This document shows positions 14,743 through 61,182 of a stretch of 64,000 nt of DNA, piece by piece (position 1 is the stretch's first letter; each line of letters opens with the position of its first letter). The stretch spans positions 23,644,015 through 23,708,014 of the forward strand of contig OZ316893.1 in NCBI GenBank assembly GCA_973895155.1, written 5' to 3'. The notes under the pieces are model-generated. The model saw only the letters and a list, made by a program, of their open reading frames with translations, did no database searches and was not told the origin of the DNA. Source of the DNA: Marsupella aquatica (taxonomy: Eukaryota; Plantae; Marchantiophyta). The position numbers were made by a program, and so were the translations under genes.

Positions 14743-16062
14743 GTAGAGAGAAAGTCCTCAAACTCTGGACTCAACAAAGGAGTGATTTTCGAGGTCTTAA
14801 CTGCCCATTCCTTGGTTGCTTCCTTCATCATAACGGCATGCCTTCTGGAAACCTCCTCGACCGACCAAGGGGTACCGAGGGTCGCAGCGGACTCCATGTC
14901 AATCTTGAACTGATTCGAATACGACTTAATCTTATCCTGACATAGAATGTACAAAAGAGCCTCCTGAGGCATCTTCTTTGTGTACCAGGATCCTTTTCGC
15001 GTCTTCACCCTGATCTGCTCAAACTTCTTGTAATTTGCAGGGTCGATGAGCTTACTATAGTACTCCAGGTCGTGCATCAAGACCCGCTTAATTTGATCGG
15101 CATCTAGGATACAGGAGGGTTCCACAACTGCTTGTCCTAGCCTGAAATAAAAGAACAAAATGAGAACATATAAGCAGCGTCGGGCGCTAGCAAAAAATTG
15201 CCTCAAAAAGTTATGCTAGAAAGAATGAACAATTCATAATGACTCACGAAGTTCTACACAAAAGGGTATCTTACTGGTTAACGGTGTGCATAGCCGCTTT
15301 GATTTCTATCAGAGAACCCTTGTCACCATTAAAAACAGTATAAAGCACACGCAGGTGGTACTTTGGGTTTTCGGGACTCTCTTGAGTGACAAGAGTCCAC
15401 GAGTAAAGCCTATGGTTCCCGTCAAAAACTGAGAACATTCTGTCTTTCAAAACTAGAAAATCTGGGTCGGTAGCACATTCTTCCTCAAATTTCTTGTTCT
15501 CAGATGTCCATATTGGATCCCAACTCTCACGAATTTCTTGAGTACAGGTGAGAAGCGCTCCCTCAGCATCGGTAGGCTGAACGTAAAACCTCATTCCAAT
15601 CAAAGAATTGTATCCCATGCTACGGAAAGAGTCTTTTAGCTTGTCGATGGAAGAACTGTCTTTCTGTAGAGTTCGGACAACCTCCATATGCACCAATCGA
15701 CATAGTGGAATTCGTGGAGGCTCTTTGTCAAACCCTCTGAAATCCTTCCCAAACGACATGACATGTTTTGAAATAAGATCCATCTCGGAAAACGAAACAT
15801 CTTGAATCACAAATGTGTCAAGATTCTCCATCTTCTTTCTCGCTGGTTTGGCAAACGAAATACTTGAGATTGGAACAAGCGATGCGGTGGACCTCGTTAC
15901 TCGACGCGTATACACTGAACCAGAGAATGAAGACTCAGAAGACTCGCAATACCCACGATCCTGATCCCCAACCACACTATACCCCCTCGACGAGGAGGGG
16001 ATTGCATCCATCGTCTTTACGATGAAAGGTGTACGAACGGAATCCTCACGACTAATTACCAA
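14743..16062 (-). pseudogene. 5' portion of the ParB/Srx-like domain gene of the Mutator-like element
   Basis: RIPLCRLVHMEVVRTL...LKDSFRSMGY...FSVFDGNHRLYSW (ParB GxxR motif). In-frame TAA at 15271-15273, intron ~15247-15142 (GTGAGT...TTTCAG), then ORF 14700..15206 up to the CACTA TIR. Confidence 0.72.
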
Positions 16063-16327
16063 TTCTTCGTACCATATTAACAGTTGCGTCCGTATTATAT
16101 CCGATCAATGAGCGCTATTCCCCTCTTTGTAATCGGTTGGAGAGACGTTACTCATTGCGAACGACAAGATTCAATTTAATTTATCAGTGACGGAAAGCGA
16201 CAACTTAGAAATTGCGATAAGTATTAATGTGAACTACGCTAAAATGTTTGCGTGATAATCACGTTGAACATTAGTTACCGTTAAAAGTTACCGTTGTCTC
16301 AGCACCTTGCGGACAAACATGCAATGC

Positions 16328-16659
16328 CAACGCCGGGCGCTAACGAATAAGAGACTACCAAATTGAAGAACTTATTGGTGAACAAATGCTAGCGCCTGGC
16401 GCTAGCCATTTGAATAATTTCATTAACGTTCTTTCTAAGCAACATATATTGTCAACAAACTCCTAAATGTACCTGTTTCACCTGTAGAAACCAAATTTTA
16501 CTTAATATTATGAGATTAAATTTATTGTATCAATAGTAGCGCCTGGCGCTAGTAAAATTTTACTATATTTGCAAAAATATTTCGTGTGTAATTATGCTAG
16601 CGCCAGGCGCTAGTCAGAATACTTTTCAAATTATGGCTTTTAGGTAGCGCCCGACGCTA
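16328..16659. repeat. Cluster of 15-bp palindromes TAGCGCCNGGCGCTA in the divergent promoter region
   Basis: Copies at 16328, 16390, 16537, 16598 and 16645. Further copies at 15175 (intron), 23651, 23716 and 23821 (intron), 25508 and 25627. Confidence 0.92.
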
Positions 16660-16960
16660 ATGAAATGGACGCACTTGTATAGACTACTATCTAGTCGTAT
16701 TCATGTAATAAATATTCCTGACACCCGCACTTGACGGGCAAAAACGACAAATGTATCATTTATGATTTCAATGGACGCAAAGTTGTGCGTGTTCTATGTC
16801 GTATTGAAACGTCTCTTTCAACGGCCGGTGGTCCTCGAAGGGGTGTTATAAGCACAAGAAATACGGTTGGGATTGGGCTATTGCATGAATTACTTCTGCC
16901 CTAAACTTCTTTTGTCTACAATGTCGCGCTCAATTGTTATTACACGTGCTTGTACCCGGG

Positions 16961-19900
16961 TGTGACGCCGCCGGTATGGCGGTTAATGAGTGATTCAGTC
17001 TAACTGCGCTCGGCATGCGCGTTAGGTGGGTCTTAGGCCGCTATTATTAGCATAACGATAGTATTTAGGTAATCATTAGGGGTAGGACATCATTAGGCAA
17101 TAAGGGGGACTTCAGGTTCGGGCTGGCGACGGGTCGCTATTCGCACACCCGGGTTACGAGCGTGGAAGGGCCCCTCCCTCGGGTCCGTATCACAAACTTA
17201 AGGAAGCGGCCACTGACGCACGCTGACTCAGACCGGCGGAGTGGCCGGTACACCACAAGCGTGAGCGGTTCAGCCTATGGGCGTCGAGGAGACGTCGGGG
17301 ATCGACAAGCCCTCAAAGTATAAAAGGGGAGCCAACCCTTTGTAGTGCACCAGTCCATCAGTCCGCGCGCCAGCTTCGACCCTAGCTCTCTCGTTCTCTC
17401 TAGGTCGCCACTACTATCTCCTCTGAATATCGCACACGATCCTCTCCAGCTCGGCCATTCGATTCTGGATGCAGTTCCTATCTACCGGAAGGCACTTGGC
17501 CGATTCATTGAAACACGCCAACCCGCGCCGATACAAAATCGAACGCGAATACGAGAGAGCCATCCGCCTAGCAGGATGACACCACTACGTCCTTAACTTT
17601 GACTACCCGTCTCAGAGCGAGCTTTACCGACCAGCAGAGGTATCTGGGTACTTCTTCAACGGAGACAAATATATTGGGTTCTGGGAAGCATTGCTTCGGC
17701 TTCCGGACGAGGTCTTCAATATCCCGGGTACAATCGACCTGCAACGACATCACTTCGACCACATCCCTGCCCAGGTTTGGGCTGTCATTAACGGTGAGTC
17801 CAGTACCAACCGTTCGACAAGGGCGTCCGCACTCGCTTCGGAGAACTTCTACCAGCACCTGCAGAGCTTCATGGGAACTCGGCCATCAACCAACATGACC
17901 AACTCAGCCGTGCCCGTACCCGTACCCATGCCCATGCAACCCCAGCCTCAACCTCAGGCTCAGCTTCAGCTTCAGCCTCAGCCGTAGCCTAGCCAAACCC
18001 CACCACCTATCACCCAGCTAGCACAGGTACGCTCCGTCATCAACGCTGTGGATCTTAGCGATGACGACGAGGCTACCCCACCCTTGACCAGGCGGCCCAG
18101 AGGAACAAGCGCTCGGGGGGCCGACACTATATCGTCCCCACCCCCTGCTCTGACCCCAGGAGCGGCCCCAGCAGACAACATGGTGACCGTGGCCGCCCCG
18201 GGCCTGTTACCAACGGCAGTGGCACTCCCCAGGCCCGATCGGGATGATGGGGAAGTATCACCTTCCCCGAGTCAGTCACGGGGAAAGAAGAGGAAGGAAT
18301 CCGCCACTGTATCCGGGTTACCGTTGGCCACGGTAGCCGTAGCCAAGGTGACGATGCACCGCATGGGGGAAAACGTTCACAGCAACATCCTCCATCCCAA
18401 GCATGCGGTGTACCTGAAGACTCAGGGATTTGAGCACCTCACCTCTCTCCCCTGGAACACTTGCAGGTACTACGGGGAGGACATGATAGAATTTGTCAAG
18501 AATTATGACGACGTACGTCAACAGACTCGGCTGCGGGGAAGGAATATGTCCCTCACAGAAGAACGGCTCAAGATGATCTTTGGGTTACCCGAAGGTGACC
18601 ATCGAGTCGAATCACGGGCTCCCGGGGGCAAGGGGGCCAAGTACCAATCTTCAAGTTTTCCCTCAGAGGGAGCAGTAGACAACGGGTTCGTGATGAGGAC
18701 CTGCCTCATGCCCAAGATAGCTGAGCGGCTGGAGTTCCAAAGGTACGCTCTCCACATGATGGAACCCCGGGGGGAGATCTCCGCCGCCCAGGTTATCCAG
18801 GTCGAGAACTATCGACCTAGGAAATGGGCGTCGTACTTCGCTAAGAAATTCCATGAAGAGATGGAGCGGCGAAGGAAGATGTTGTACATTGGCGGGAAGG
18901 CGTATTTCGCTAGCCACATCGAAATCATTCTTGAGTGGTATGCCCGGTTTGATCGACGAACCCTTCCCCGCATCAACATTACAAAGCTGGTCCCAGCTAG
19001 GTGGGTTTTTCCGGCATTGGAGAGACGGCCCCAACCCGAGGCCCGAAGTCCAGCGGACACGCCAGCTTCACCCACCCCACCTCCACAAATAGCTATAATT
19101 GTAACCGAGGAGGCGCCGGAGGGGTCGGTTGTCGCAACCGTTGATGCGACCCAACTAGCCGGGCTAAGTACAGAAGTTGGTACGGCAGAGGTCTTACCCG
19201 AACCCGGGTCTCCCAAGGACCCACTGGTGGCAATTCCAGAGAACCGGACATTGCTGCAGGAGGACACTCCAGCCCCTTCCAACGTTATGTCCCTAGGGCT
19301 GGACGTCACTGCCCCGGCCCCCGCGCGTGTTGACGTCTGCCCGTGCCCAAATCCGGACAGGCACAACTTGGACCACCCGGAACTCTTCGTACAGGGTACG
19401 TTTCTGAACGGGCTTCTGGGAGATTTCTCTCATCAAATTGCCCGGGATACCGGGGAGTTCATGGCCCGGAAGGTAGCCTATTTCTTCAATCAGGAGTTGG
19501 TTGCCGCCGTAAAGGCAGGTCGGGCCCAGTCGGAGGCCCTTCAGAGGATAGAGCGGTACTGGGTGGAGTCCGTGTACCTAAAGAACGAAGTGGCGGCTCA
19601 AGAGGCTGAGCTTCTGCAACTACGACCCAAGGTTGCAGCCGCCGATGAGTTGTTAGCAAAGGCGCACGCTCTTACCGCCCTAGCCGAACAGGCCAAAGCT
19701 GGGAACGAGGCCGAGATTACACGACTCCGGAACCAGATTGACAGTTTGAAGAAACAAGCTGTCACCTGGCAGAAAGACCTGGAGGAGGCCGAGGAGCGAG
19801 CCCAGCGGGACACGGCGGAGATAGCCACTCTGCAGGCCGAGATGGCGCGGCTCCAAACCGAGGCCGAGAAGCAGGACCAGCTGGCAGCTAAACTGACGAG

Positions 19901-20977
19901 CGACGCCCAGCAGCTGGAGGAGGCATGTCAGGAGGCAGCAGAGGAGACGGACGCAGCGAGGCGAGAGAACGAATCTCTGCTGGACCAGGTCCAGCTCCTC
20001 AAAGCGGACAATGACAGGCTTCGAAGGCAACGGGATGGCCGTTCCCATTCGGGCGGCTCTGGCAAGCGTGCCAGGCATTAGCGGCGGAGTAGGAATAGAT
20101 TAGGATTAGGATTGGCTTAGTCAGGCTCTTGGGACAGGCACCTGCCTTAGGTATAGCAGCGCTGCCCTGCTGCCCAGCCTGCGTAGATTAGGATCTTCTA
20201 ATAAGACACAGCCGTTTTCCGGCCTGACTGTCAGCTTAGTTAGGACCTTAGTCAGCGAATCTTCGGCGAGAGGACACCCCGTCCCTCGGCTCTTAGTATT
20301 TAGTGCACCCCTTGGTAGAGGCAGGGGGGTTTTTAGTTTCAGAGTGGGACATCCGCGGGATATGCGGGGAGTCCCGACCTCTGGGAATGACAGAGTACCA
20401 AGGGGAGGGAGTAGGACTAAGCTCGCCGGGCGAGTGCGGAGCCGGGCTCCGTTGTAGTGTGCACCCTCGGCCTTGAACCTGTTTATTCCAGGGCTGTCGG
20501 GTCAACTAAGTGTACGCATATGTTCCCTTTGTAGTAAAATCCTTTCCCATCATTTTCCTTCGTGTAAATCGAGATTGTATGCATGTGTGCGCATATGTGT
20601 GTGGGTTTCTCGTATATGGGTGGCAGCGCCAGGCCGAACGCACTACCCGAGACATGCACAGGGTGCAGCCTGCGGGTAAGTGGTTGCGAGCACGGGTTGA
20701 GGACTTGTATCATCGAATCCGGATCGAAGGCGGACAGCACGAAGGCTTAGAAGCCCTTAAGCCGGGGTCGATCCTGCTATCGACTAAGGTACGTTCCGGC
20801 GGCGGAACACAAACCATACCTAGGAGGTGTCCGTATTTAGCAGTATGCGCACTTAGCGCTAGTTTACGAGAATAAGGTGCATTACGTGCTTCCCTTCCTG
20901 CCCGAACCCTCAGATTTACGAGGGATGTGCCCGTCTAAGCTGAAGTCTGAGTTAAGGCCGAAGCCTACGACATGACA
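16961..20977 (+). mobile_element. Solo-LTR-like element family A (4,017 bp) containing a long ORF
   Basis: TGTGAC...CATGACA termini, 5-bp TSD CCGGG (16956-16960 and 20978-20982), no terminal direct repeats, TATAAAA at ~17320. Homologous to 57320-61154. Confidence 0.88.
17871..20081 (+). CDS. Retrotransposon accessory protein (plant-transposon/PTTA-like domain + coiled coil); one TAG at 17985 upstream of the 677-aa ORF
   Basis: YLKTQGFEHLTSLPW...MIEFVKNYD...RGRNMSLTEERLKMIFGLPEG, then a Pro-rich linker and a heptad C-terminus. Aligns by eye with the family-B ORF (36354 onward). Confidence 0.6.
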
Positions 20978-21513
20978 CCGGGAAGTCATCAAAGTTCCCG
21001 TGCAGGTTTCTGATACTTACAAGCAAGTAAGCGAGAACTATCTGTGCGGGAGATTCGATTTGAGAATCAATGACATTCTGTCGATTGTTCCTGAGGAGTC
21101 ATCGAGTGGAGGACATGAACCAGCTGCGGCATTTGATGTGGATGACGGAATACGTTTCTGGCAAATGAATGTAGGACTTCGTTACACGCTTCATGTCAGA
21201 CCTACTCCTCTTCAATCGGTTGTTCAGGACATTCCGCCCCAGATTGTTGAAATATCTGAGAGTGAAGATGAGGAAGTTGCGCCCAATCCTCCTGAGAAGC
21301 ACAAAGCTCCAAGCTCTAGTTGCCTTAAGAGTGAACCGGTGGCCACTTCCACTACAGATGTCCAGAAGGTTTACAGGCGGAGTGCAATGGACGCCTTACT
21401 CAAGGCCACCGGCCATAGTGAATTGTCAAGATTTATGTCGGCAGGGGACTTTAGACATGATCAAGTTCCTCGTTTGCCAAACAAGTACAACGGAAATATT
21501 GTATTTGAATTGC

Positions 21514-22178
21514 CCCTGGGCCCCCAGCCTTTGTAAACTAAAGAGGTATACGTGCGTACACCCCCCTCCCTAGTACCCCTTATTATTTTTGGAAGCCTAT
21601 AAAAATTTCTCTTGTTATTCTTAAAAACTTAATTTTGGAGAATAAATCTGCCCCTTTGAGATATTATAATTTCACATTTTACACCATTTATGAAAGCCTT
21701 GAAAAGTTATAAATGTATCATGTGCAAACGGTTCTAAAACTGATGGGAGTGTTTTAGAAGGGTTTTGGGTACATACATTTTTGTGTTCGTGACCCTTTAA
21801 CCCCAAACTTCAACTTTGGGGCATTTTTGAACCACATGGCAGGGTAGTCAGGGTTCAAAAGCTCCAAAGTCCTAAACTACTCTGAATCATAGATGTTGCA
21901 AGCATAATTATATGTCATATACACATGTTCCAATAAAGGGTGACCACAAGGACCAATCCTATTGTGACGCGTGTCACATCCATATTACATCACCTCTTGA
22001 AGCATATTAACTTGGGTGACATTTATATAAGCCTATATTAGTTAGAAAAGGTTCTTTGAATAAAACCATCCCTTGATATTTCTAAGCCAATTATAAAAAT
22101 TAATCTCAAATCAGATTTTTTGCACCCTTCGTCCGTTCGCACGTCCAGCCCATTATTAATAATGCTGGGGGCCCAGGG
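21514..22178. mobile_element. MITE, 665 bp
   Basis: 15-bp TIR CCCTGGGCCCCCAGC / GCTGGGGGCCCAGGG, 8-bp TSD TGAATTGC (21506-21513 and 22179-22186), AT-rich interior. Removing it restores the MULE frame. Confidence 0.92.
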
Positions 22179-25100
22179 TGAATTGCCTCCCATTGTGGGA
22201 ATGCAGTCCAAAGGATCTAGACTTCGTGACATGGACCGTGCCAAAGATTGTTACATTTGGACCAGGATTTTTTCGACGACCGTAAACGTGCAACCAAAGA
22301 AACACTGGGAGTTTGGTAAAGTCAGTTGTACTGGGTTCGTCGAGTGCAGGAACAAATCTTGTGAATATTTTTTGCGAAAGAAGAGATGCAATTCTAAAGC
22401 GTGGGCTGGTACCCCTAAGCTTAGTGGTCAGCATGTGGTGGGTTCGCTCATTGAAGAGGGTGGTATAGTATGTCACTACTGTGAAAAGATTCCTTTTTGT
22501 GTGGACTCTTGCCCTGCTTGCTTGTTCTATATGTATCCACAGGTCCTACTTGATACAGCAACCTGTAGTCACATGTCTCGGCTCGCGGTACATATAGGTG
22601 AACATAATCATCCAAGTAGAAAAGTTTTCTCGAGGAGTGCTGAAAAGATGGCTGAGGACTTAATAAAAAGAAATCACGAAGCTAATCCTCTTGCGAAACC
22701 GGCTGGGATTTTGAATTCGGCGACTGGTTTGCTTGTGAAAGCTCTTTGCGAGAACGTTGACGACATCGTAGATATTGAAGAAACCGAAATTTGGAAGTCT
22801 CTCATGGTTCTATCTACTCCTCAGAAATTTGCGTCCCTTTGTCGCAGCGTTCGAATGGACCAGGCTGGTCGTGGTGAGTTAGATTTCCTAGCTCAAATGC
22901 AAAGGTCAAATAATATTTCTTTTCTCCAAAGGTATCTTCTTCCGGGTCAGGGTTGTTTAGCAGATCGTCCCCACATATTCAAAATGTCAGTGAATGGTCA
23001 TGGATCTGGTGTAGATCTTTTACGTCAGATGCAACCTGGCGGAAGACTGGAAGGGGCTTGGGTGAGTTTTGATGTCATGAAGCGAGTGACAACCGACTGG
23101 TTTACTTTTAGTGCACACGTTTACGATCACAACTTTCGAGCTCTTTGTACAATATTCACATGCGAACTAAAAGCTGAAGACACAGAGTCCTTTGAGAAGG
23201 CATGGAGAATTATGATAGAGGTTTGTAAGGAAAATGGGTTACATGAGGTTACCATTCAAGGTTTTATGGCCGACAATGCTCAGGCTGGATGGATTGCCGT
23301 TCGCAATGTCTTTTTTGGGGGTCACCTAGACCCTGAACGTGAACGCTCCGATGCATTCCACTTTTACCAGTCTTTCCATCGACATTCCACCGAGGGAGTA
23401 CTCGAGGGTAGGCAACCTGAAATCTAAGACTATGGGAGAAATTGCGAAATGCTCCATCATTTGTTGCTGCGTACCGAGTTTCTAGGGAGATTGTGTTATG
23501 GTGGCAAGCAGGCAACTGTGTTCCAGGGAAACTGATGATGTTGCAGAGTTGGATATCATGGTGGGTCGTTCGATGGCGTCAGTGGGGGAATTTCATTCGC
23601 GTGGTAAGTTTTATCAATGCTTACAATAGTCACTTCGCCAGGTTTTTTACCAGCGCCTGGCGCTGCTTTTAACTGTACAGATGCCAACATTATATTATTA
23701 CATCATACACAATGCTAGCGCCTGGCGCTGCTTTAAACTGTACAGAGAACTTTGCCACATTGATGACTTATGAACACTTGATAATACCAACATTACCGTA
23801 ATATATATTATATACATTGCTAGCGCCTGGCCCTGCTTTAACAAATTGACTAAAGTTGGTCTGGATTCACTTCATTGCAGAGCAAAAGCGCAGAAGAAGG
23901 TGCCCTCATTCCAAACTGTACAGGTTCTGAGTCAAGGCACGCTTCAATGAAAGCATGGGCAACCAAAAAAATGGTGGGCCTCTTCGAAGCATGCGAAGTT
24001 GATCAAAATCAGGCTATATCTCAAGTTGCAGGTTACAGTGCATATCGGAAAGGACTCAATAGAGGGAAGGGGCCAACTATCTGGGATTGGCATTCCGTTC
24101 GGCAGACCAAGCAGGTTCACCCAAGTTATTCGAAGAAGCCACTAACATGATTCTTTCCAACTCTGCCGATTTTGATCTGGGTAGGAATTCTTCTCTGAAT
24201 GGAGATATTGTCACCAAATTGGTTAAGAGGAAGGGACTTGCAACTGGGATTGTCTCGCCACAAGACTCCCATCGGCATGACACCATTCTCATCACTACCC
24301 CAAATACTCAAGGATTCAAACGGAAGAATCTCAACAAGACTGAGTTCACTTCCATTCCCACCAATGTAGTAGATCCTGTAGTAGACCTCTGCGGGAGTGA
24401 CACTTCAACAAGTGAAAGCGATTCCCTTGCGAACACCCCTGAAGCCACGAGGGAAACAACATCATCTCAACAACCACGCAGTGCCCCCGCTGTGGTTCAA
24501 CGTTTGCCGACAGAATCAGCTCCATTGGAAATGGACGTTCCAAGAGGAAGCTGGCATTTGAGACGGACGGCCAAATATGGGGCAAGGCCACAGTGTAATG
24601 GGACCTTGCATGGAAATTCTGACAGAGATGAGTGTCGAAATCGTGTCAAGAAAATAGGGTTGCATTCTGCTGCCGATGTTGTCGGCATTGTTGTCAGCGG
24701 ACATCGGATTTTCAGAGGAACTCCCATTGCCGAAATGATATGGTTCTGCCCAAACAGCACATGCTACAAGAGCCGCCCGCGTCGTGGTGTTGAACGCCTT
24801 CCTCCTGTACCGGACATCCTGCCAGTTGTGAAAGGAATAAACCTCTTGCCTGGCGAGATAGAGTACCTTCAAGCGTAGGGAGTCTCTATGGTCCAAATAG
24901 CTCCGCCCTCTCGAACTCGAACTGCACCATTTGCATTCGACTTGAGAATCAATGTTAACACATTTCCAGAGAAAATCAATTTTTCGGAGCCCAACGTGCG
25001 CCTTCGTAGCAGGAATGGGAGGAACTCCAGACCTCGCTCTAATCTAACTGTGGCTCATAGTAAACGAATGGAGTCGGCTCAAAAAGAAGCTATGACTCTG

Positions 25101-26545
25101 GATGGAGAGTGGGATGTGATTAGTGGAATTGCTTATGGGAAACAATTCAGAATACGGACTCACGAGAACCTTCGATCGCCAAACACTTACTTTGTCCAAA
25201 TGTGCATCTTCCCTACTTGTTCCTGTGAGGATTTCTTCCGTCGTCATTCCCGCGGCAAGCCGTATATGCCCTGTAAACATTTGTACTGGGTGTTCATAAA
25301 TGTCTTCAAGTTTCATGTAGAGGAGTCTACCCTGTGTAGCCAGCCGATTTTGACAGTTGGAGAAGTTAGACTTGTGTTGGAGAGGCACAACGCAAATGGT
25401 TTATAGAGGGACACGATTTATCCTTAACTGTCGTATTCCATAACGGATACTATGTTGTTTTGTCTTTAGTCAACGGATATTACTTTAGTTTTTTATGTGG
25501 TTTTGGTTAGCGTCGGGCACTGGTCAATAACTTATTTATAAAATTTTGTTTTTTGTGGTTATTGCCATTGGATGGTTCCATAAGCTTTTATTATCGTCCC
25601 ATTATTCTGCGTACTTAATCCTTTGTTAGCGCCTGGCGCTAGTTTCACACTCTGCCTGACAGACCCCTATGTTTCCGATAACATAATTCAGTCCACAACT
25701 GGCTTTGTGGTGGGTCCCACCTGAGCATACTCCATTCCTCCATGGGTATTATGGTTAGCCTTTTTTTAACCACACTAATGAAGTATATGAACTAAATGAA
25801 GCATTTAAAAGTGGACTGTTTAGAAATGTTGCTGTATTTAAACAACAGTGAATTGAATGACAACCCTTTTTTATCTATAATCTGAGCAAGTGACAATGGA
25901 TTGGAACCTCTCCGAGAAACTATGAGCACACTTTTCCCTTAGATCTGACGTCGTGTCTTATGCCAGTAGGAATATTTTTAGCTTAAACAAGAAGCCTTAA
26001 ATGATGAGTAACAAGCCCATACTTTAGGAACTCTAGCCAAAAAATCAGAAAAACAACGAAAAAGTCAAAAAAAGTGCAAAAATTAGCACCTATTTTAGAG
26101 AAAAAATATGGAGCGAACAAAATATGACATAAACTAGCTATGTTTTGACACCTAAAAATGACCAAATTCATCTGAAGTTACATTCCACCAATAAATGATC
26201 TCAAATACAACACTATTATCTACAATGGTCTCACAATTACACGAGGTGTCTTTTGAAACAACAACTAAATCACCTCCAAAAGCCATTGTCATTTAAAAAC
26301 CAGAAAATAAATTACTACAACTTAACCTGATACACATTATTGTGAAAAGAAGACAAGGAGAATAGAAATGACACCATCTAATTGAATTGAAACACAACCC
26401 ACTAAGATAATATTAAACTACAAATTTCTCAAGAAACTTTAACCATGAATTCATGAATAAGTGGTAAAGGCATTTTGAAAATTTGTAAATTTTCAAGTTA
26501 TCCATGTTTTTCAATGGTAATGTCACAAACAATAACTACTTTTCA

Positions 26546-29500
26546 TTACTCAGATCCAGAAGTCCTCAATTCTTGAAACGAAATATCCCTAGATTTACCT
26601 CCTAGCGGGGTTCTAGTTGATCCATTCTCTTGTTCTTGCTCTTTCTCTTCTGCCAAAAATTCAGTCAATCGGATTTTGATTCGATCTACTGTCTTTTTGT
26701 ACAATGTATCAGATTTTGTCAACATGAAGTTGTAAGCAAAAACAGTCGTTGAAGATAAATCAAGCTCTTGGTGAAACCATATTGGTTTCAAAGTTCCTTT
26801 CCCACGACCACTTTTCTTCTTTTCGTAGTTTAAGACTTCTGGTAAGTACTTGGCTTTCCAAGGATCTGACCCGGTTTTTGTAGCATGCCATAAAACATAA
26901 ATCATTTTTGGAATGTTGAACTCGTCGCGCTGGTCAATTCTTTCCACCTTGGCCACCCAAAATGTTTCCGATTCTTCTCCAGCAACAGAAATATAAGTGT
27001 TGACTTCAAGATCCGAAAAGTCTCCTTCCATATTCTCCTTCTCTGCATCTATCTTTCCTTGATTCCGATAAGGACCCACGTATATATCTCTGGTAGGTCC
27101 GTATACTCTCTCTTCAATTTCCTCTTCATTGACAAGGACTCTGGGAACTTCAGCAGCAACAGCAATCTCCCTTTGGGAGCGTGGCCATTGAAAAGGGAAA
27201 ATCAATGGTCTTTGATCAAGGAGCAAAGATTTATTCAATTCCCGTTGCTCTTCAAAAAACATTCTCCACCAGTTCACTTCCTCTTCTGAGAATAAAGTTT
27301 CAACTGCAAGTATTCCCTTTTGAATCTCATTTAACGAATCATCCATCTCCTTCAAAGTCATTCTTGAAGAACTAGACATATTTGGTTGAGTCCTTGTAAC
27401 GTTCTTATCCCCCTTTTTGAAAAGGGGTAATCCGGGAGCACAACCCATCACCTTTTCTGGCTCCTCTTCCCTCAAAAATTTCATGCCTCCGTCAGGTTTC
27501 CAAGTTGAGTCCGTGGAAAACTTCTTCCCCCATTGGGTTGGAACTTGATTTTCCAACTTGTCAAATGCAAATTTGTACTGGTGGTGGAAGGTAACATTTT
27601 GAATCCTTTCAATGACTAAAGGTGGATCTGAGAAGGCATATTGACGGAAATCATATGTTTCCTTTAAAAGAGTGATATTTGGTTGGGGTTGATATGATTC
27701 ACAAATAATATCACATAGGCTTTCGTATGTGAATGCCTTAAACCTTGCTAGTCGTTTAGAAAATCGACTGAACATTTGATCTATTTGGTCGTGTGTGTGT
27801 CCAACCAACAAGAATCCTAGTTTGATTTTCCGAAAAACCTTTCTTCGAATCAACATATGAAGATAGGCAAAGAGTAAATTATTTTTATTTTCTCTACTGG
27901 TATTATCAAGTTGAAGATAGAGAACAGGCGGCAAGCCACCAGGCTTTTCTTCCCATTCGTGAAACACCCTTTGCAGGATTGTGACTGTCAAGTTTCCATC
28001 ATTATGCAATACAGGATAATTAAGAAACACTCTTGAAAATAATGCACCATTGAAAACCAGGCATCCGACAACGTGCATTTGGATCAAACATGTTTCGTCC
28101 ACCGATTTTGGGGGCCGCGGCCAATGAGGCAACCCTGTCTTCTTCTGATCCATCCCATCAATGACAACTCCCAAATATTTATCAGAATTTGAAAAACATT
28201 TCTTACGATGCTTCGCGAGTTTCTCACGTTCTTTGGATTGTTGGTCTCTATGTTTTTGTAACATAATTTCCCCTCGCCCTGGAAAAACAACTTGTTAGTT
28301 TCTTCAAAAAAAATTAGAAATCATGTGTTAAGCCATATTCTTGAAACAAAAACTTGTCAAACTTGTAAGTAACTTACTCTTTTCGGTCTCCGAGACAGCT
28401 TTGTCCCGAATTGATTTGAACTCCTCGCAATCCGCGCAAGCACTGAATCGATTGACTGGAGGAATCTTCACATGACCAAATTCTTGAACCCAAACTTTCA
28501 AGAATTGTCGATAGGATATTTTTGAAGATTCATCAATCTTGGCATAGTTGGAGTCGTAGATCTTCCATACCTCCAGCTTTGAATAATTATCCGGTAAATG
28601 TGAAACTTCTTTATTTGGCAATGTTTCCACGCGTGTCTCAAAAAACGACCTAAGCCAACTGACCAAGACTAATCTTTTAACAGATGGAGGGCGTCCAACT
28701 GGTTTAGAATATCCTAAGTCTTGGTTGTCTAATTTCAAAATTCTATTTAATCTATGATTGCCAACGCAAAATATAAGCTTGAAAGCTTTCCGACAAATAC
28801 TCTTTTGACCAAACGTGTAAGATATAGTCTGCCTCCCTCCTTCATTTCCGTCTCGCTTTATAAGCCACTGCAAAGATAAAGATCGATCCTGAGATTTCTG
28901 CCTCAAAAATTTAGAACGCGCCTCACGAATTTCTTTTGGAGATAGACTTAGGAGACAATGACTCTGACAACAGTACTTACTATTTGTTTTCTTGATATCC
29001 TCCTCTTTCAACTTTGTTTCACACAAAGTGGCGTTGCTCGTACGTTTGTAACGACTAGATGCCACCGGAACATCATCATCCTCCCCACTCTCCGAAGACT
29101 CGCTTTCATTCGATGATGAAATGGTCACCAACATTTGCTTCTGAACATGCCTAGATTCCAGACCTGCAGCCTTCGGAGATGGAGGCTCTTCCTTCACTCT
29201 ATGCACCCTTGGAATACCTGGGCGTATTTCAGAAATCCCTCCATTACCGTGTAGGGACCCTTTCAATATTTTCCTAGGGTCCCTCTCCACCAGGTTGGTT
29301 TCCCTGTTTGAGTTTCCGTGACTTGATCCGCTCCCTGCCCCAACACCATGACTCCTAGGTAAAACTGAGGAACGCACATTAGAATTCTTTTCTGGAATAC
29401 TTTTCAATAACTCTGGTCGTCTAGTTTCTTCCCTCATCCCCCTGTGAAATGTTTCCGACGTTGGCTTACCAAAGGTTTTACTTTTTGGCATTTGCTTCAG

Positions 29501-29944
29501 CCGCTGAACACTTTGGAGACTGCAAAAATCTCTGTCATTTTCCCCACTTAGTGCCTTCTTCGTCTTTCCAAATCCAGTCTTCATGAATTCATGAGACCGT
29601 TTCCCAGACATCCAAATAGGCATTGAACCTTCCAGATTACTCCCCAATTTGTCCTTTGTTGGTGACAAAGGAGATACAACTTGACGTCCAGGGGGACCAA
29701 TACTCTCCAAGGAGTCAGAGGAGCTCCCTGACCTCTCTTTACCACCGACCAATGATTTCTTCCCACTAATTGCAAGTCGTAAAGGACTACGTTTTAACTT
29801 GCTCATAGGGGTGGGGGGTGGCATATCTAAAACAGTAGTTATTCCAGGGATATCTGGGCCAACCACTGTGCAGGGGCCATCCGGCAATGAAACATCATCA
29901 GAAACTCCATCTGAATAATCATCTGATTCGTAACACGCCACCAT
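26546..29944 (-). CDS. DUF7869/Sola-like DDD transposase, apparently intact (~1,099 aa; exons 29944-28378 and 28278-26546)
   Basis: The GTAAGT...TTCCAG intron joins the two ORFs in frame (EKR-RGEIMLQKH). Motifs CCQSHC, ICRKAF, FSACADC, VIDGMDQKK, LYLQLDNTSRENKN and FLLVGHTHDQIDQMFS. Confidence 0.85.
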
Positions 29945-30488
29945 TGGAAAAACTAGTGCAAATTGACAAGAAACTCAGAAAATCAGTAAAATCTAACAAA
30001 TCTTCTCAAAATAATGACCAAGAGTCATGAATAAACGAGCCTATTTATAGTTTTTCACGGATTGTTGGGACTTTTTAACTTCAAAAATATCAAATATTCA
30101 TGAAATTTGCAAGCTTTTTCCCGTTAATACCCCGAAATATTCATGAATAATTGGCCCAAAAACATTGATTTATCATGATTTCGGGTTAATTTTACTAAGT
30201 CGCGCCTGATCCGTGATTAGTATGTATAACCAAGGAACACGGGGCAGCCCATTCATTTTCACTCAATGTCATTTGGATTTCCTTTGTAAAAGAGTGAAAA
30301 ACAATCTCGCTGTCCAATTTCGTGCCATTTTCAGCACTCATCGGCGACGTGTCGCGAGTTGTCGCGGTCGCACTTCATTTCGACCCTGTTTTAGGTAGTA
30401 ATTTAGGCCCTGGGTGATTTCTTCACGTCACCCCCCTCCGAACCCTATTTTAAATACCCTTCTGCATCACCGAGGTGTACAAGCAAAG

Positions 30489-30598
30489 AGAGAGGAGACT
30501 CCCTTCATGAATTCATGAAGGTCGGAGCGAGAGGGAGACTCCCTTCATGAATTCATGAAGGTCGGAGCGAGAGGGAGACTCCCTTCATGAATTCATGA
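30489..30598. repeat. 40-bp tandem repeat (x~3), each unit containing the palindrome TCATGAATTCATGA
   Basis: Perfect palindromes at 30505, 30545 and 30585, extended to 20 bp (CCTTCATGAATTCATGAAGG) in the first two. Located just upstream of the MTase gene. Confidence 0.95.
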
Positions 30599-30763
30599 TA
30601 GGAGTCCTGGGGTGGCCGAGAGCGTTGTTAGATCCGTAAGGACACGGTTTTAGTAACCATTTGTTGGCACATTCCTTGGTTCTGTGGCACTTTGTCTCGC
30701 AGGTTGGGGTTGAAGTGGACTGATTTTGTGGTATGTTCTCAGGTTTGAAGATCAGGCAAAAAC

Positions 30764-33700
30764 ATGACAATGTCGCAGGAAGAGCTGGTGGATGACATCT
30801 TTTCGCGCCATCCTTTGACGGACTTCCACAACTCATCTTGGACGATTTCCTTAGGGACGGAAACATGGAAGAAGCCCTTCCTAATGCTGTGTGTATTTGA
30901 GGGGCTTCCATCGGGGGCATTAGGGTGGGTAAATTACGGCCGCATCGATGTATTTCGACGGGGCGACGAAGTTGTGAACATGTTGATCACAACGAAGGAA
31001 ACATCAACTTTGATTGTCGTGGATGTGGAGAGGTTTTCTGGAACGGCTGCCACCTGCTATCTCGATGAGGACATCGATAGCATCATTGAGACTGTCAAGT
31101 CTCTTTCGAGTGAGGAACGTTACCACGACGTCGCGGGAAAGATTTCCGGTTTTGTGTTTGAATTTCACGCTAGCACTTTAAAGAGTGCAATCCGAAAATC
31201 AAGAGAGATTCTCCGGAAAAGGTCGGCAGAGAAGGGAGTAAGTCGTCCACCCAAATCTGGGGCTTCCGGTGTTCCTTCTGGATCGAGGCCTAGCATTTTA
31301 CCCAATGATATTTTGACCGTGGTAGCGCCTACAACCTCCCGGGAAGCAGCAGCATCTGGAGGGGGATCTCAAGTTGGCAGATCATCCTAGGGAACGGCTT
31401 TGACTGGTGGGTCGGCACAAGGTACGACTGGAACTCGCATTTCTTCAAAGAAGCGACCTGCTATGACTCCTGAGCCTACCGAGCCCAATGCTACAAAGTC
31501 AAAAAAGAAGACTTTGGAGAAAATTCCAACGCATTTGGAGCAAAAGGCTCAATCAATGTCAATGGATGCACGGGTATTGTACCAGGAGGAGATTCTGGGA
31601 AGATGTGGTGTTCAAGAGGAGACCGTGACCGTTGACATTGGTCAACTTTACCCTCTAGTGAGAGAGAAGGCTGTGGGCTTGCCCATTTACCAGGTCTGAC
31701 ACATCCAACCATATTTCTTGACCCAATTGACCTTGCGGATGAAGACTGTAGGTGCCAGTCCACTTGCAGCTCCGTTTGTCCTCTTGGTGGATCCGAAGGA
31801 GTGTGCTACTAGGCAAGACTTTGATTTTTCAAGGAAAGCTGATTACCATTATTATGTGATTGGGGGCAACCATTCAGCCTGTGCCAAAGCAGACCTTGCT
31901 CTTCAGTTCCCTAACAACAAGGCATTTCGGAGAGTGCAATCTTGGATATTTGCGGGATTGAGTGTGCAAGAGGCAAGAAACCTGGCGTGGAGTCACAATA
32001 TTGATTCTGAATTTCGACAACAGATGACGACAATCCAGAGAGTAAATTATATTCACATGAGATTTATTGAGAATGGATTGTCGTCCAACCAGGATTTCAA
32101 GAAAGAGTGTGCTACTGAAATCAATCTCAAGGATTGGGGTGTACGAAAGGATGCTGAGGTTCTTAATGCCAATGATAACCTATTTCAGTTGGCATTCCGA
32201 CAAGATCCTGTGTGGTCATTTGTGAGGCAGATTTGTGACAAGTGGGAGATGTGTGAGATCAAAGGTCAAAAAGGAGACAAAGGCAAGAAGAAAGTCTCTA
32301 AGTCTGGAGATGCCAAATTGCCTTATGAGGACATGAAATTAACAGAGTGGAGACACATGCAGGCCTTGAAAGATCCTGATATGATTTGCCCAGTGTTACA
32401 GAGAGTTCTTACTAAAGAACTCTCTTTACAGGAAATGGGTCACGAATTTACTCGACACAAATTTCAGATGCAGGTGCAGAAGGCCTTCCTCACGTGTCTA
32501 CACAAGGAGAGTTGGTCAGGTTGTAAAACCAAGTACCCTGAGCATTGCACAGACAATGTGCTTAAGAATTTCGTACCTGTTTTCCAGACATGGGTAAGAT
32601 TCTGTCACCTTTCTTCGAATGATTGTTTGAATTCATTTAATATTTGGAATCCTTGTTTCTAATTCTACAGTTCCTTTTTGTAGAAAGATACCACCTCCCG
32701 GAAAAAGAAGGGAGATGAGGAAGGCAAAGATCTCAAGTCATTCCCGGACAAATTCAATGCGCATATTGTGCAAGCCCAAAATTGGCTATCCATGAAGACT
32801 TCTAGTCGGCAAACCCAAGAGGGGGAACTTCATCCAAATTCGTTTGAGCATCCAGAGTTTGGTGATGTGCACTATGATATTTTTACTCATGATGCTCAGC
32901 GATTACATGAGGTGGTTCCGGGTCGGGCTTACACATTAGCTTTAGTGGATATTCCCTACGGGTTTGCATTGCCTGGATGTCTTCATGAAGACACTATTGG
33001 ATGGGGAACTGAGGAGATCACAAAAATGGTCCAATCGTTCAAGGTGGCTACTACTGCAAAGTTGTGGCGTATTATCATTCACCACAGCCTTGACCAATAT
33101 GAGGCCATCAAGACCGTTTTGAAAGCGGAGTGTAATGGAGGGTTCCAGAATTGTGTGTGGTAAGAAATATTTGTTTTTGAAAAAAACAACTATTAGTTAT
33201 TCATGATTTCATGAACCATGTTTCTCAGTTTAAATAACTCCTTGACTTTTTGTGACTTTTCAGGGTTAAGGATAATGTGAAGAATGCTGGTGGACCAAGA
33301 TTGAACAACAACTTTGAGTGCTTTACAATTGGCTTTCACAGCCAGGATGGTAAACGGTCATTGGAGCACTTCAATTTTGACACAAATGAATCAAGGAACA
33401 ATGTGGTTGTATGCGCAGCTGTGACTAAGAAGCTGAAACACAACGGGGATAACAAGGCAGTGAATGTTTATCAGAAACCACGTGCATTGTTAGATTGGGA
33501 AGTGAGTCATTTTAGTCAGGTTGGAGACTGGGTTTTGGATATTTGTTCAGGATCAGGGACTGGGACAACCTCCTCCTGGGCCATGGGGAGACATTGCGTT
33601 GCCATTGAGATTGACGAGCGACAGAGCAGTGTGTTGAAAGGGAGGATTCTCAACCTTGCAGATAACATTGAAGAGGAAGACAGACAGGGGGAGATGGATG

Positions 33701-33825
33701 AGGAGAGTGAGGAAGACATTCCTCAGGCCGGAGAGGATAGCGTGGTTGACGATGCCACAATTGTTCCAGAATTGACGACAGGGACTTCCGGAACCGAGGA
33801 AGGGGAAGCGGTCCCTTTGGATTAG
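30764..33825 (+). pseudogene. ParB-like domain + beta-class N6-adenine/N4-cytosine DNA methyltransferase fusion (~955 codons; exons 30764-32593, 32684-33159, 33264-33825; two internal stops)
   Basis: ParB-like: PFVLLVDP...YYVIGGNHSACA...WIFAGLSVQEARNLAWSHN. MTase motif IV LALVDIPYG, then CVWVKDN...FE, then YQKPRALL...FSQVGDWVLDICSGSGT...GRHCVAIEID (IV before X-I = beta order). All splice junctions keep the frame. Stops TAG at 31388 and TGA at 31697. Confidence 0.88.
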
Positions 33826-34218
33826 ACTAGATAAATAGAGGGACTCGTAGCATTTGAAACCACTTGGGCTTAAGTTGGGTTATATTTTGTAAAACTTTGA
33901 GTTTGACTTAAACTCTGATCGATGAGTTTGATTTTGATTACTTTTATAAAGTGCATATTTCAAGGTTTATACAATTGTGAGAATATCATATAAGATATGC
34001 TTAGATTTTGGTGGTAAAATTCTCTTGAGTCTAGTTTGGAAAATACATACCATTTTTTGGTGGTTTTTTGGTATACACTTTTTAATATCATGAAGATTTT
34101 GAAAAGAGAAATAAGGCTTTGGACTCATCCCTTAAGGCTTCTTGTTCTTAAGTATGTGGTTGTTCCTTACGTGAATTTTAGAAAAACTTTGCCAAATAGT
34201 ACACTTTTACAATAACAA

Positions 34219-34256
34219 TTTCCTGTTACCAGGAGAAATTACCTGGTAACAGGAAA
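34219..34256. other. Perfect 15-bp-stem hairpin
   Basis: TTTCCTGTTACCAGG-agaaatta-CCTGGTAACAGGAAA. Confidence 0.85.
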
Positions 34257-40102: not shown

Positions 40103-41636
40103 CGCGCTAAGCATCGGCGGCTAGGGGTAACCAACGGGAGGAAAGACCAGAGGAGGAGAGGGGTAAGGACCGCTCGCGAGGAATGGTGGCTCATTTGCAA
40201 GCATGAACTGGGCAGACGACTACGGAAGGCCAACTACTGTCAACTGCTTAGGCAAGCACTCTGGGCGGGAGCAGATACCAACAATCGACTCAAGGAGGGT
40301 ATGAGCAACGTCAATCAAGCGGCACATTTTTGGGGATGCCTGTTTGAACGGGCAACTGAGTACATTAGGACTTACGAGGACGAAGAATCGGAGAGAGTAG
40401 CTTGAGAACGGTAGGAGCTCGCTTGACTGTGGGAGCTGCAGAAGTCTGCCTTCTTAGGAGGAGAACTCATCAAGGCCGAGTTCTTGTGGACTCCTACTAC
40501 CAATCAGCTCGATGATCTTTTGTTTTGCGAAGACAGACTCGTCGGCATTCGGGAAGCCATCAACCGCTACAACGACGGGCACTGGGAGTTGAAGGGTAGC
40601 ACGAAGGGGTGGACAAAGGCAACTATGCTAGGAGAAACATCCACGACAGACGAGATGAAGAGGAAAGGAAACAACAACGAAGAGGCCACCCCGGCAAAAA
40701 GAACGAGGTCGGCGGCACCAAGGAAAACACGATTTCGGACCGACCAAGAAGTGTGTTGGAGTTCTCGTTTAACCCGATCCCGTTTTTTTCTAAGGCAATG
40801 CAATGACCGATAAAATTGGAAAAAACTCTCTGAAACGCCACTTTCCTCCATTGCATCGCCGCGGGAATGCAGGGAGCGATATGTGCATCGGGTTTTACAT
40901 TTCGTCAGTGAAAAAGTCCAAATTGCGAGTAACTTGGTCCGAACCGCATAATCCAGGAACGACCACGCACTAACCCAGGTAAAGGGGAAAATTAACCATG
41001 GTTAAGGGGAAATTAACCATGGTTTAGAGCGTCTCCTATATAAAGAGGAGCGGGCTGCCCATAAAACGTTTGCTTTTGCCAGAGCAAATATCTCTTGACT
41101 GAGAGCGAATACCAAACTCCCATCAAGTCTTACATTCCTCCCAAGCGATTCGACTCTTTCTACCGAAAACCCAATAAATTTATCGAAATAGCCATTCCTG
41201 TTCAAGTTCTCCATGTAAGACTAACTAGTCATTTAGTGTAAAATGTCCAGATCCGAGCGGAATGCGATAAATTTATCGCATTTTGCATTCCTCTGTTGCA
41301 ATCATTTGATCCAGTGTTTAGAGAGGTGTTGCCTTCATTCCGATAAATTTATCGGAGTCTTCATTCCTTTCATGGAAAGAGGAGTAATTGAGAATCCGAT
41401 AAATTTATCGGAGTTGTCATTTTTGTGAAAGATTGAATTCAGGGGTTAGGTGTCTGAGGAAGTCATATTTCAATTCGAATGCGGAGTGCGATAAACTTAT
41501 CGCATCCTCCTGTGAGAATCATTTTCCTTTGTTTTGTTTGGAGACTCATCTTCATCTCTGATGTCGCAGTGTTGCCGGGTTTAGGAGGCACAACGGAAGG
41601 TCGATTGCACTCCGTGGACAACAGGTATTGTGACAA

Positions 41637-41963
41637 ATGGCTGTCTTCCTTGAAAATCGTGTCAAACGTGCACACCGTTTGTACAAGAGACTCGTGCGAC
41701 TCAAAGTTCTCCCCATCGGTATAGGAGCATTGTGGATGGGTGGTACTGATCCTGGAGATAGGCAGAATCCTCTCCGCATTGAATTCTACGGAATGAATGA
41801 TGCAGGAGTTCCAATTCATTCGAGGTTGATGTTAACGGCGTGTTTACATTTGGAGTTTTCTTGTAACTATTGTTGTCGTCATCTTGACAACAAGTACCAC
41901 AAACAGGCTCACTTCTGTTGTAAGATTTGGAACGAAGACCCTTGGGTGAACCTTTCACGATGA
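41637..41963 (+). CDS. Small Cys/His-containing cargo ORF, unknown function
   Basis: 108-aa ATG ORF (CNYCCRH...HFCC) lying between palindrome clusters. No recognised family. Confidence 0.3.
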   Translation: MAVFLENRVKRAHRLYKRLVRLKVLPIGIGALWMGGTDPGDRQNPLRIEFYGMNDAGVPIHSRLMLTACLHLEFSCNYCCRHLDNKYHKQAHFCCKIWNEDPWVNLSR

Positions 41964-42157
41964 GTGTTTCGACCTTTTCATTGAGGCACGTCTTGGAAGG
42001 ACATATTTAAATAAACAAGTCCTACCCTTGCGCAGCGAATATAATACGTCATGAGTCCTAATCGTTAAACTGTCGTGCAGGGTTGGTACTGTGGATGTGT
42101 TCGGTTACACCTGGTGATTGAAGGTATTTTTATTGGTGGTTTTGGTAGCTCTGCTTC

Positions 42158-42700
42158 ATGGCTGCATCGGAGAATCTAATCGTTGCAAAGATGGGATCCG
42201 TTTTAGCCCACGAGCGTAGGAAATATATTCGAGGAAAAGTGCCCGGTGTGGAATGCGGAAGTTTGTTGAATGGACTTCCCGATGAACTCGTTGAATCTCA
42301 CATTTGGCCCCTCCTAGCCTTGTCTTGCACACAAGATGAACACCTTGGCCTTGACCTAAAACTTCTACCAGAAGAACGACTGACTCGAATGAGAACAATC
42401 ATTTGTCTTGGAGCCACCTCGAAGAAATGGAACCATCTTGTTGTTGGTACACGATTTTGGGCGCTATTGAAATATGCAGTCCGTGAGATCAATGACATAA
42501 ACAAAATGCTCGCAAGCATTCCTAATGCCGACCTTCTCTCAAACCTACATATTGCTAGGGTCTTCCGAGAGGAAACTCATTTCCTCCCTCCCATAGATAT
42601 GCTTGGGTGCTTTTCGTATGAGCAGTTAGATCAGTTTCGTAGAGTTTGGATAAATCTTGGAGAAAGCGGGAAGCGGACAATTCTTGCATGGCATGGATGA
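42158..42700 (+). CDS. F-box-like cargo protein
   Basis: SLLNGLPDELVESHIWPLL...IICLGATSKKWNHLV matches the F-box consensus with an insertion. Confidence 0.55.
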   Translation: MAASENLIVAKMGSVLAHERRKYIRGKVPGVECGSLLNGLPDELVESHIWPLLALSCTQDEHLGLDLKLLPEERLTRMRTIICLGATSKKWNHLVVGTRFWALLKYAVREINDINKMLASIPNADLLSNLHIARVFREETHFLPPIDMLGCFSYEQLDQFRRVWINLGESGKRTILAWHG

Positions 42701-42998
42701 GTCTGAGTGGATGAGGCATTGCTGCGAACATCCGATAAATTTATCACACTCCTCATTCCTCTAGTCAATTTTGGGTGCTTGTAAAGAAACACTTTGAATA
42801 TAATTGACTCTCCCTCCCCTGACTTCGGGTTGTGTGGTCCAGAGTGTATTTGTTTGCGCCTCTTCGGACGATTAGCTGACAAGTGCATTGGCTTCACAGC
42901 CCGTTATACAAGGTACTGTAAAGTTGGATGAAACTTGTAGAATTGTAATTAGTATGTTCTCCAAAATTTATTCCTGATTTCTATTCGGTGATCAGGCC

Positions 42999-43472
42999 AT
43001 GCTCGAGCGACGCATTTTTGTACCCTACCCGGATCCTCCAGAATGGGGGAATGGAGCCATGCTGGACCAGCTAAGGAGGCTGGATGAGTCACTAATTTTA
43101 AAGATATGCAGGCTGGTAGTAAAACCGTTTTACCATAACGCATTTCACTTCTACGTAGATCAGGTAGGGGGAGAAATTTATATTCGGTGGGATAGATATG
43201 TTGGATTTTCTAGAAGAGTTATCCTACTCTTTCTGAAAACCGGTGCAGTAAGATGTTTTATACTCCACTACTGTCATGTTGTGAAGGGCAATCCTGCTTA
43301 TGAGCCAGAATTCTATGCCGACAACAGACGTAGAGCATTCGATGAGATTCAGGATGTGATTGACAAGCTGGACAATCCTCTTGCCACCAAGTTTTTTATT
43401 GACACTGGTGGGAAACTATATTCATACAAGATTCGTCAACTCCCCCCCCCAGCCGGTCTATGGGCTCTTTAA
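42999..43472 (+). CDS. Cargo ORF with a weak F-box-like N-terminus
   Basis: LDQLRRLDESLILKICRLV; 157 aa, ATG start. Confidence 0.35.
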   Translation: MLERRIFVPYPDPPEWGNGAMLDQLRRLDESLILKICRLVVKPFYHNAFHFYVDQVGGEIYIRWDRYVGFSRRVILLFLKTGAVRCFILHYCHVVKGNPAYEPEFYADNRRRAFDEIQDVIDKLDNPLATKFFIDTGGKLYSYKIRQLPPPAGLWAL

Positions 43473-61154: not shown

Positions 61155-61182
61155 GGAGACACCCTAAAGTAGTGGGGCCTAC

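Follow-up and report, generated by a model that had tools for sequence, protein, structure and literature searches.

Transposons that carry DNA-modifying enzymes are already known as a kind. C5 methyltransferases (MTases) of the DNMT3 type occur in Copia and DIRS retrotransposons (cited through PMC12344493), and PCIF1-like enzymes of DIRS1 elements and Dam of Trichomonas likewise lie in or near mobile elements; in the accessible parts of these sources, they are C5 or group-2/3 amino-MTases. The Mutator-like VANDAL elements of Arabidopsis combine an accessory gene, VANC, with a family-specific motif in introns, in intergenic or terminal non-coding regions and in tandem repeats (accessible part of PMC5735166). 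In the present study, we analyzed a stretch of 64,000 nucleotides from the liverwort Marsupella aquatica (contig OZ316893.1, positions 23,644,015 to 23,708,014; hereafter the window), in which a transposon, E1, carries, beside a DUF7869 transposase gene, a gene for a predicted ParB-like region fused to a predicted beta-class amino-MTase (ParB-MTase). E1 and a divergent element in the same window, E2, are like the VANDAL elements in having an accessory gene and a motif of their own, a likeness that rests on sequence layout. Unlike them, they have DUF7869 and not Mutator-like transposases, their motifs are palindromes whereas the VANC targets, as far as that source is accessible, are 9-mers in the same orientation, and their accessory gene encodes a ParB fold joined to an MTase, for which writer activity is predicted. 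They also differ from the MTase-bearing elements named above in that the enzyme is a permuted beta-class one within a streptophyte transposon with terminal inverted repeats (TIRs).

The beta-class enzymes known from eukaryotes are encoded by the host and serve in silencing or in sperm. N4CMT and DN4MT1 are, like the present protein, bacterial-type beta-class enzymes (PF01555) adapted to eukaryotes; unlike it, they are encoded by host genes, have an SPPY motif and write N4-methylcytosine (4mC), whereas the gene described here is transposon cargo with a D-type motif. According to the accessible parts of the reports, N4CMT has a chromodomain and DN4MT1 has no extra domain, in contrast to the ParB-like fusion here. 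A chlorophyte Dam with a helix-turn-helix of the ParB type and fusions of ParB and DAM in prokaryotic viruses have been described by Iyer et al. (PMC4738411), and no such clade appears among the permuted enzymes in the accessible part of that study. Our search of the accessible literature found no description of a transposon system with a ParB-fold/beta-class cargo; Repbase reports and most subscription papers lay outside its scope, so that a prior mention is possible. UniRef labels some members of the family 'DNA methylase N-4/N-6 domain-containing'.

E1 is a complete cut-and-paste transposon. Its 32-nt TIRs are 84% complementary, with the first 15 nt identical, and CTTA stands on both sides; TIRs and a CTTA duplication had been named in the preliminary description of this locus. 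When the region was compared with contigs of four public sequencing runs (X1, X2, X3 and X5), the empty site was found in three: in contigs of X1, X2 and X3, position 34147 follows directly on 25981, and the 8,165 nt missing between them equal the element plus one CTTA; no such joint was found in X5. The family looks young, because long X1 contigs differ from the E1 copy at only 21 of 5,920 bases. The transposase, which had been called intact, indeed has an open frame of 1,099 amino acids with no internal stop after removal of a predicted 99-nt intron; this intron, predicted without RNA, has the best splice consensus among 12 candidates that keep the frame. Exon 2 contains three acidic motifs (IDGMDQ, LQLDN and GHTHDQID) and matches DUF7869 (E 2.7e-51); exon 1 had no match in the Pfam scan. 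The Sola superfamily is defined by TIRs and a 4-bp target-site duplication, and its subgroups by GRG termini (Sola2), GAG termini with TTAA (Sola3) or AWWT (Sola1). E1 (CTTA) and E2 (GGAA) both have TIRs and 4-bp duplications, each with an empty-site joint, which fits this definition; both begin AACA and, with these targets, match none of the subgroup rules. A further mark of Sola is a DD(D/E) transposase that converges with the Repbase Sola proteins, for which the DUF7869 match and the three acidic motifs make the E1 protein a candidate. The name Sola for the E1 transposase is drawn from its motifs, not from a comparison with Sola reference sequences, and is taken here as an assumption; two reviews, in their accessible parts, name Sola in lists only (PMC4455052, PMC9033089).

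The ParB-MTase is a stable cargo of such transposons. E2 carries the same gene pair, with 35-38% identity to E1 in ParB-MTase and 38% in the DUF7869 exon, arranged tail to tail and not head to head as in E1; its empty-site joint was found in X1 and in a further run, X4, and not in X2 or X5. The ParB-MTase gene of the E2 copy has two frameshifts; in X1 and X2 most of the contig depth has them filled, and in X4 the filled share is 36% and 74%. A homologue search returned 410 matches at E <=0.001; among the 150 listed, organisms were looked up for 30, of which 14 were named, including Calypogeia fissa, Riccia sorocarpa, Chara braunii, Ceratopteris, Adiantum and Ginkgo. For three of the four named Riccia MTase genes, one of the at least 48 DUF7869 genes listed lies at a distance of 1, 2 and 5 locus tags, respectively (chance about 3e-5). 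The claim that the gene moves as cargo is thus borne out by the empty sites of E1 and by the recurrence of the gene with a transposase in E2 and Riccia. A one-off capture is ruled out, as E2 carries the same pair and Riccia MTase genes adjoin DUF7869 genes. In addition, a ParB exon (P0003) and a DUF7869 exon (P0169), each about 68% identical to E1, both have a longest contig of 8,829 bp and possibly belong to one element.

The MTase gene comprises 953 codons over three exons with two stops, TAG at 31388 and TGA at 31697; of the protein described before (about 955 amino acids with two stops), the stops stand and the length is corrected. Both introns occur at the same position and phase in two homologous loci (L001 and L002), and an annotated Calypogeia protein (P0001) contains both spliced junctions. 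The gene therefore appears to be spliced and adapted to eukaryotes, as had been proposed from its two frame-keeping introns, the predicted splicing resting on intron conservation. In L001 the N-terminal domain includes one more intron-like stretch (L001:1000-1125), which is absent from E1. Contamination is ruled out by the conserved introns, the plant-type transposon flanks, TTTAGGG repeats in the window and the named homologues, all streptophytes. Position 31388 reads C in 540/540 (X1), 1598/1639 (X2), 7208/7449 (X3) and 30/42 (X5) of the contig depth, which is not copy number, and position 31697 in 540/540, 1161/2018, 5042/5042 and 66/1788, respectively. One X1 contig spans both stop positions; no single contig spans the full gene. 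Relatives have CAG at the first site and CGA at the second, so that both stops can be explained by C-to-T changes, as had been supposed; CAG and CGA are CHG and CG contexts, which plants methylate. The preliminary description had named a lack of intact copies as evidence against its proposal; stop-free alleles are dominant in most runs, and the E1 copy has several missense differences from the dominant contigs. The MTase gene is under purifying selection: between E1 and L001 the proportions of non-synonymous and synonymous differences are 0.24 and 0.75 (580 codons; synonymous sites are saturated), and between L001 and L002 the ratio of the corresponding substitution rates (dN/dS) is 0.09, far below the value near 1 that had been named as evidence against the proposal.

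The motif order of the MTase, DIPY (exon 2) before DICSGSG (exon 3), is the beta order, and from its sequence the enzyme is assigned to the beta-class amino-MTases (PF01555). In searches with a family profile, CcrM, M1.HpyAVI, RsrI, M.BceJIV and MboIIA (E 1e-18 to 8e-15) ranked above PvuII and N4CMT (E about 2e-7). A model of the homologue P0001 (mean predicted local distance difference test score, pLDDT, 81; lower in the N-terminal 120 residues) matched CcrM best (E 3.5e-14, Z 25.1, root mean square deviation 2.7 over 231 residues), followed by N4CMT (Z 21.3), PvuII (Z 20.0) and METTL3 (Z 14.4). With the N6-adenine MTases CcrM, M.BceJIV, M.MboIIA, M1.HpyAVI and M.RsrI the protein shares motif IV before motif I, W-x-K-x-N, QKP and the fold (Z 20-25); it differs from them in its low identity (about 15-22%), its DIPY-type motif and its spliced gene, and in standing behind a ParB-like module in a eukaryotic transposon. 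We aligned 158 proteins, 80 of which cover motif IV. The first residue of this motif is D in 73/80 (DIPY in 22, DPPY in 6), and SPPY was found in 0/80; motif I and QKP are conserved across the same homologues. A D-type motif IV that is never SPPY favors N6-methyladenine (6mA) over 4mC, in line with the earlier remark that DIPY usually indicates 6mA. The product is probably 6mA; a dead or RNA-directed domain is unlikely, and 4mC about as unlikely or slightly more so.

For the ParB-like part (31700-32593), an AlphaFold model had a pLDDT of 84.7. The label 'ParB' of the preliminary description holds for the predicted fold, which matches ParB/Spo0J/Noc, and not for the Pfam scan, in which the region had no ParB match. 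The top Foldseek rows were all ParB/Spo0J/Noc/KorB (best E 3e-3, none <0.001), and VIA-align gave PadC (Z 6.2), Spo0J (Z 5.2, residues 2-251) and the KorB DNA-binding domain (Z 4.7, 96-256), so that the match extends into the DNA-binding domain; viral structural matches were ParB-like, too. Three methods thus agree on a ParB-family fold for the modeled region, each with a modest score. In an alignment of 19 sequences, which leaves out three without the anchor motif, 17-19 retain R310 (the residue at the TGA stop), GGxH and an N further downstream. The arginine of GxxR is part of the CTP (cytidine triphosphate) pocket of ParB. As in ParB/Spo0J/Noc/KorB clamps with parS, an N-domain and a helical DNA-binding-like region are predicted, with conserved R, GGxH and N and with palindromes of 14-16 bp nearby; unlike in ParABS, the GxxR arginine is absent, an MTase is fused, and E1 holds two genes only, with no ATPase family (ParA) in the Pfam scan. 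On the model, then, the region may work like a ParB DNA-binding module, whereas membership of the CTPase clamps fails on this arginine. The nearest language-model neighbors of the ParB-like proteins of E1 and of a third element, E3, are DUF3723 proteins of ascomycetes (score 0.95), which are cargo of Starship elements; DUF3723 gave no alignment and no Pfam match with the ParB-like proteins and is a lead only.

A new feature is that each element has its own palindrome in promoters and introns; the preliminary description mentions neither these palindromes nor E2 nor the missing GxxR arginine. TTCATG-N4-CATGAA occurs five times in the window at <=1 mismatch, always in E1 (expected 0.38): three sites lie in the 40-bp tandem repeat of the promoter, one in intron 2 of the MTase gene and one in the transposase coding sequence. 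Of its half-sites in E1, 14/18 fall in the non-coding part, which makes up 24%. The same type of palindrome is found twice upstream of the MTase gene and once in intron 2 in L001, and once in intron 2 in L002, the three differing in the 4-bp core only. E2 has 19 copies of CGATAA-NN-TTATCG (expected 0.06), confined to it, of which 0/19 lie in the approximate coding ranges and some in 71- and 75-bp tandem repeats; E3 has 10 copies of TAGCGCC-N-GGCGCTA (expected 0.03), confined to it as well. As the patterns were derived from the same elements, the shuffle-based expectations show repetition and confinement, not function. Among viral contigs there were 16 matches to the E1 palindrome, and two hidden Markov models found no homologue in them. 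The observed/expected CpG ratio is 0.62 in E1, 0.83 in E2, 0.74-0.86 in E3, 0.38 in a CACTA element and 0.61-0.84 in repeats like long terminal repeats (LTRs); being above the CACTA value but overlapping with that of the repeats, the ratios give no clear sign of protection from 5-methylcytosine (5mC).

We tentatively favor a mechanism in which the ParB-like protein loads on the palindromes of its own family and 6mA self-methylation serves as anti-silencing, by analogy with VANC. The protein would dimerize, its ParB-like region would bind the non-coding palindromes of its own element, and it would spread along the DNA from there; the fused beta-class MTase would write 6mA on nearby element DNA, and this mark might keep copies of the same family expressible despite host silencing by 5mC. 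That a palindrome set also stands beside the ParB-like gene of E3, with an unrelated transposase, speaks for this mechanism. A wider reading is somewhat less probable: a load-and-mark device like ParB/parS may have existed in streptophyte transposons since before land plants, pairs without the enzyme may be general across transposase superfamilies, and such elements may be an unrecognized source of sequence-targeted 6mA.

Several observations weigh against this mechanism and the evidence behind it. The fourth Riccia MTase gene is 101 tags from any listed DUF7869 transposase, and C at position 31697 makes up only 58% of the X2 depth and 4% of the X5 depth. The Z-scores with ParB proteins are moderate (4.7-6.2), and the GxxR arginine is absent in 19/19, its place after GGxH being taken by S, T, C, G or the like, so that sliding driven by CTP cannot be taken for granted. 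Most homologues have DIPY, DVPY, DAPY or DFPY as motif IV and only 6/80 have DPPY, and the activity could therefore be altered. As for E3, its ParB likeness is an Atlas match below the recognition threshold (hhalign probability 1.2%), its transposase has a SWIM match only (E 0.11), and a repeat of about 4 kb (17133-20977, also at 57320-61160) lies between the two genes.

More doubtful is a role of the palindrome-bound ParB-MTase in self-limitation or timing, either through KorB-like repression at the divergent promoter or through a methyl mark that links transposition to hemimethylation. Dam is known to tie transposition of IS10 and Tn5 to newly replicated, hemimethylated DNA. Three palindromes do lie between the divergent genes, KorB is among the fold matches, and the best MTase match, CcrM, is a solitary regulatory enzyme; however, copies also lie in introns and 3' regions and number up to 19 across E2, which points to a coating of the entire element and not to one operator. 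Rather unlikely is that the palindromes are sites of the transposase or of a host transcription factor, an active MTase being aimed by its own short-motif specificity, genome-wide or in chromatin. Every palindrome set here accompanies a transposase, and transposases can bind and activate cognate copies sequence-specifically (accessible part of bioRxiv 10.64898/2026.08.24.746577), a point that also counts against the load-and-mark mechanism. However, most copies are internal and not subterminal, one palindrome is kept within the intron of the MTase gene itself in three families, and a similar motif system stands beside a different type of transposase in E3.

It is quite improbable that the product is 4mC, which would protect cytosines against 5mC, and that the enzyme has a connection with how DN4MT1 of Marchantia arose. 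The Z-scores of N4CMT and PvuII are not far below that of CcrM, and the PF01555 domain has switched specificity repeatedly (PMC8885841, in its accessible part). However, DN4MT1 has TSPPY (bioRxiv 10.1101/2021.02.12.428880) and N4CMT has SPPY (PMC8885841, PMC10406627) in the accessible parts of these reports, a motif absent from all 80 homologue columns, and the deepest-branching homologues have DPPY or DPPW. Given the same difference, the suggestion that such elements could be a vehicle or source of the 4mC enzymes of Marchantia or rotifers is unsupported. Least probable is a catalytically dead or RNA-directed MTase domain in a protein retained as a scaffold that binds DNA, comparable to the DIRS1-borne MTases described as likely inactive (accessible part of PMC4738411). 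The second proline position of motif IV does vary and the E3 ParB-like gene lacks an MTase, but from Chara to Ginkgo the homologues keep the motif IV aspartate and aromatic residue, the S-adenosylmethionine (SAM) motif and QKP, and in fold METTL3 (Z 14) is more distant than the DNA enzymes (Z 25).

The sequences fit an old streptophyte family rather than a fresh transfer. In the tree of the MTase domain, E1 groups with Calypogeia and Chara forms its own clade, and in the trees the deepest branches, which are long, belong to forms that often bear DPPY; these trees were midpoint-rooted without a prokaryote outgroup and contain several long branches, and there are too few linked pairs for a test of co-divergence. 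Five proteins from metagenome contigs (P0165, P0166, P0046, P0067 and P0149) are distant single-frame fusions of a ParB-like region and a beta-class MTase, some with DPPY or DPPW. A phage search with P0001 gave no match, P0165 matched phages and plasmids at 23-34% identity in the MTase only, viral contigs gave 0/87, and PHROGs matched the MTase only; these searches thus yielded no close donor among prokaryotes or viruses.

If the load-and-mark mechanism is true, a bacterial-type mark would stand on the transposon side of the conflict, in a family on DNA transposons from Chara to Ginkgo. Anti-silencing would become open to test, with enzyme and site both named and with the three palindromes of this one window as natural variants in specificity. 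For non-seed plants and Ginkgo there would be a candidate source of local 6mA, and a site-directed adenine methylase for plant epigenome work might also come of it. Land plants had been regarded as having few N6-adenine MTases (accessible part of PMC4738411). The features of the three elements are collected in Table 1.

Table 1. Positions in the window of the features of E1, E2 and E3
Feature	Position	Strand	Basis or remark
Element E1	25986..34146		8,161 bp; TIRs and CTTA duplication
E1 left target-site copy CTTA	25982..25985	+	sequence; empty-site joint
E1 left TIR, start AACAAG	25986..26017	+	sequence
E1 transposase exon 2, DUF7869 catalytic region	26546..28278	-	Pfam
E1 predicted transposase intron, GTAAGT...TTTTCCAG	28279..28377	-	splice consensus
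E1 transposase exon 1 (low-complexity N-terminus, Cys-rich region)	28378..29944	-	open frame
E1 divergent promoter region between transposase and MTase genes	29945..30769	.	gene layout
E1 40-bp tandem repeat (2.8 units, TTCATG-AATT-CATGAA in each)	30488..30598	.	divergent promoter
E1 MTase exon 1: N-terminal domain, linker, ParB-like N-domain and helical DNA-binding-like region	30770..32593	+	
E1 MTase intron 1, 90 nt, GT-AG	32594..32683	+	position and phase common to L001, L002
E1 MTase exon 2, catalytic motif IV DIPY	32684..33159	+	sequence; alignment
E1 MTase intron 2, 104 nt, palindrome at 33200-33215	33160..33263	+	intron and palindrome also in L001, L002
E1 MTase exon 3: YQKP, SAM-binding motif I DICSGSG, acidic tail	33264..33825	+	Pfam N6_N4_Mtase E 6.7e-8
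E1 right TIR	34115..34146	-	sequence
E1 right target-site copy CTTA	34147..34150	+	sequence; empty-site joint
Element E2, divergent	40726..50798	.	TIRs begin AACACG; GGAA duplication
E2 ParB-MTase gene	~43930-47490	+	
E2 DUF7869 exon	47821-49497	-	
E3, inferred element, ends unmapped	14700..25641		ParB-like gene without MTase (-); MULE (Mutator-like)/SWIM-like transposase (+, 22060-25406)

The ParB-like gene and the transposase of E3 are regarded as one element because they share the palindrome TAGCGCC-N-GGCGCTA; the ParB-like gene has the motif DGNHR, with the arginine kept. E2 sits within a high-copy LTR-like repeat and contains extra open reading frames (ORFs) at 42149-42700 (weakly F-box-like, E 0.06), 42978-43472 and 41634-41963. 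In the window copy the E2 transposase apparently lacks its 5' exon (loose ends at 49668-49669), and positions 1-457 of the window are a reversed further copy of the E2 left end, 94.6% identical. Just to the right of E1 are a hairpin-forming repeat (34217-34260) and a short ORF (34383-34628) that resembles, by its motif, the start of a SNF2/RAD5-type helicase and had no Pfam match. The region 5225-11939 contains a CACTA transposase (Transposase_21, DUF4216 and DUF4218) and is strongly CpG-depleted (0.38); two ORFs beside the transposase, one with twin BRCT (9345-10328) and one with an NSD-like PHD finger (11175-11939), may be chromatin-related cargo. Plant-type TTTAGGG repeats occur at 43707-43750 and 55815-56640, the latter inside a 238-bp tandem array with the palindrome ATATGCATGCAT.

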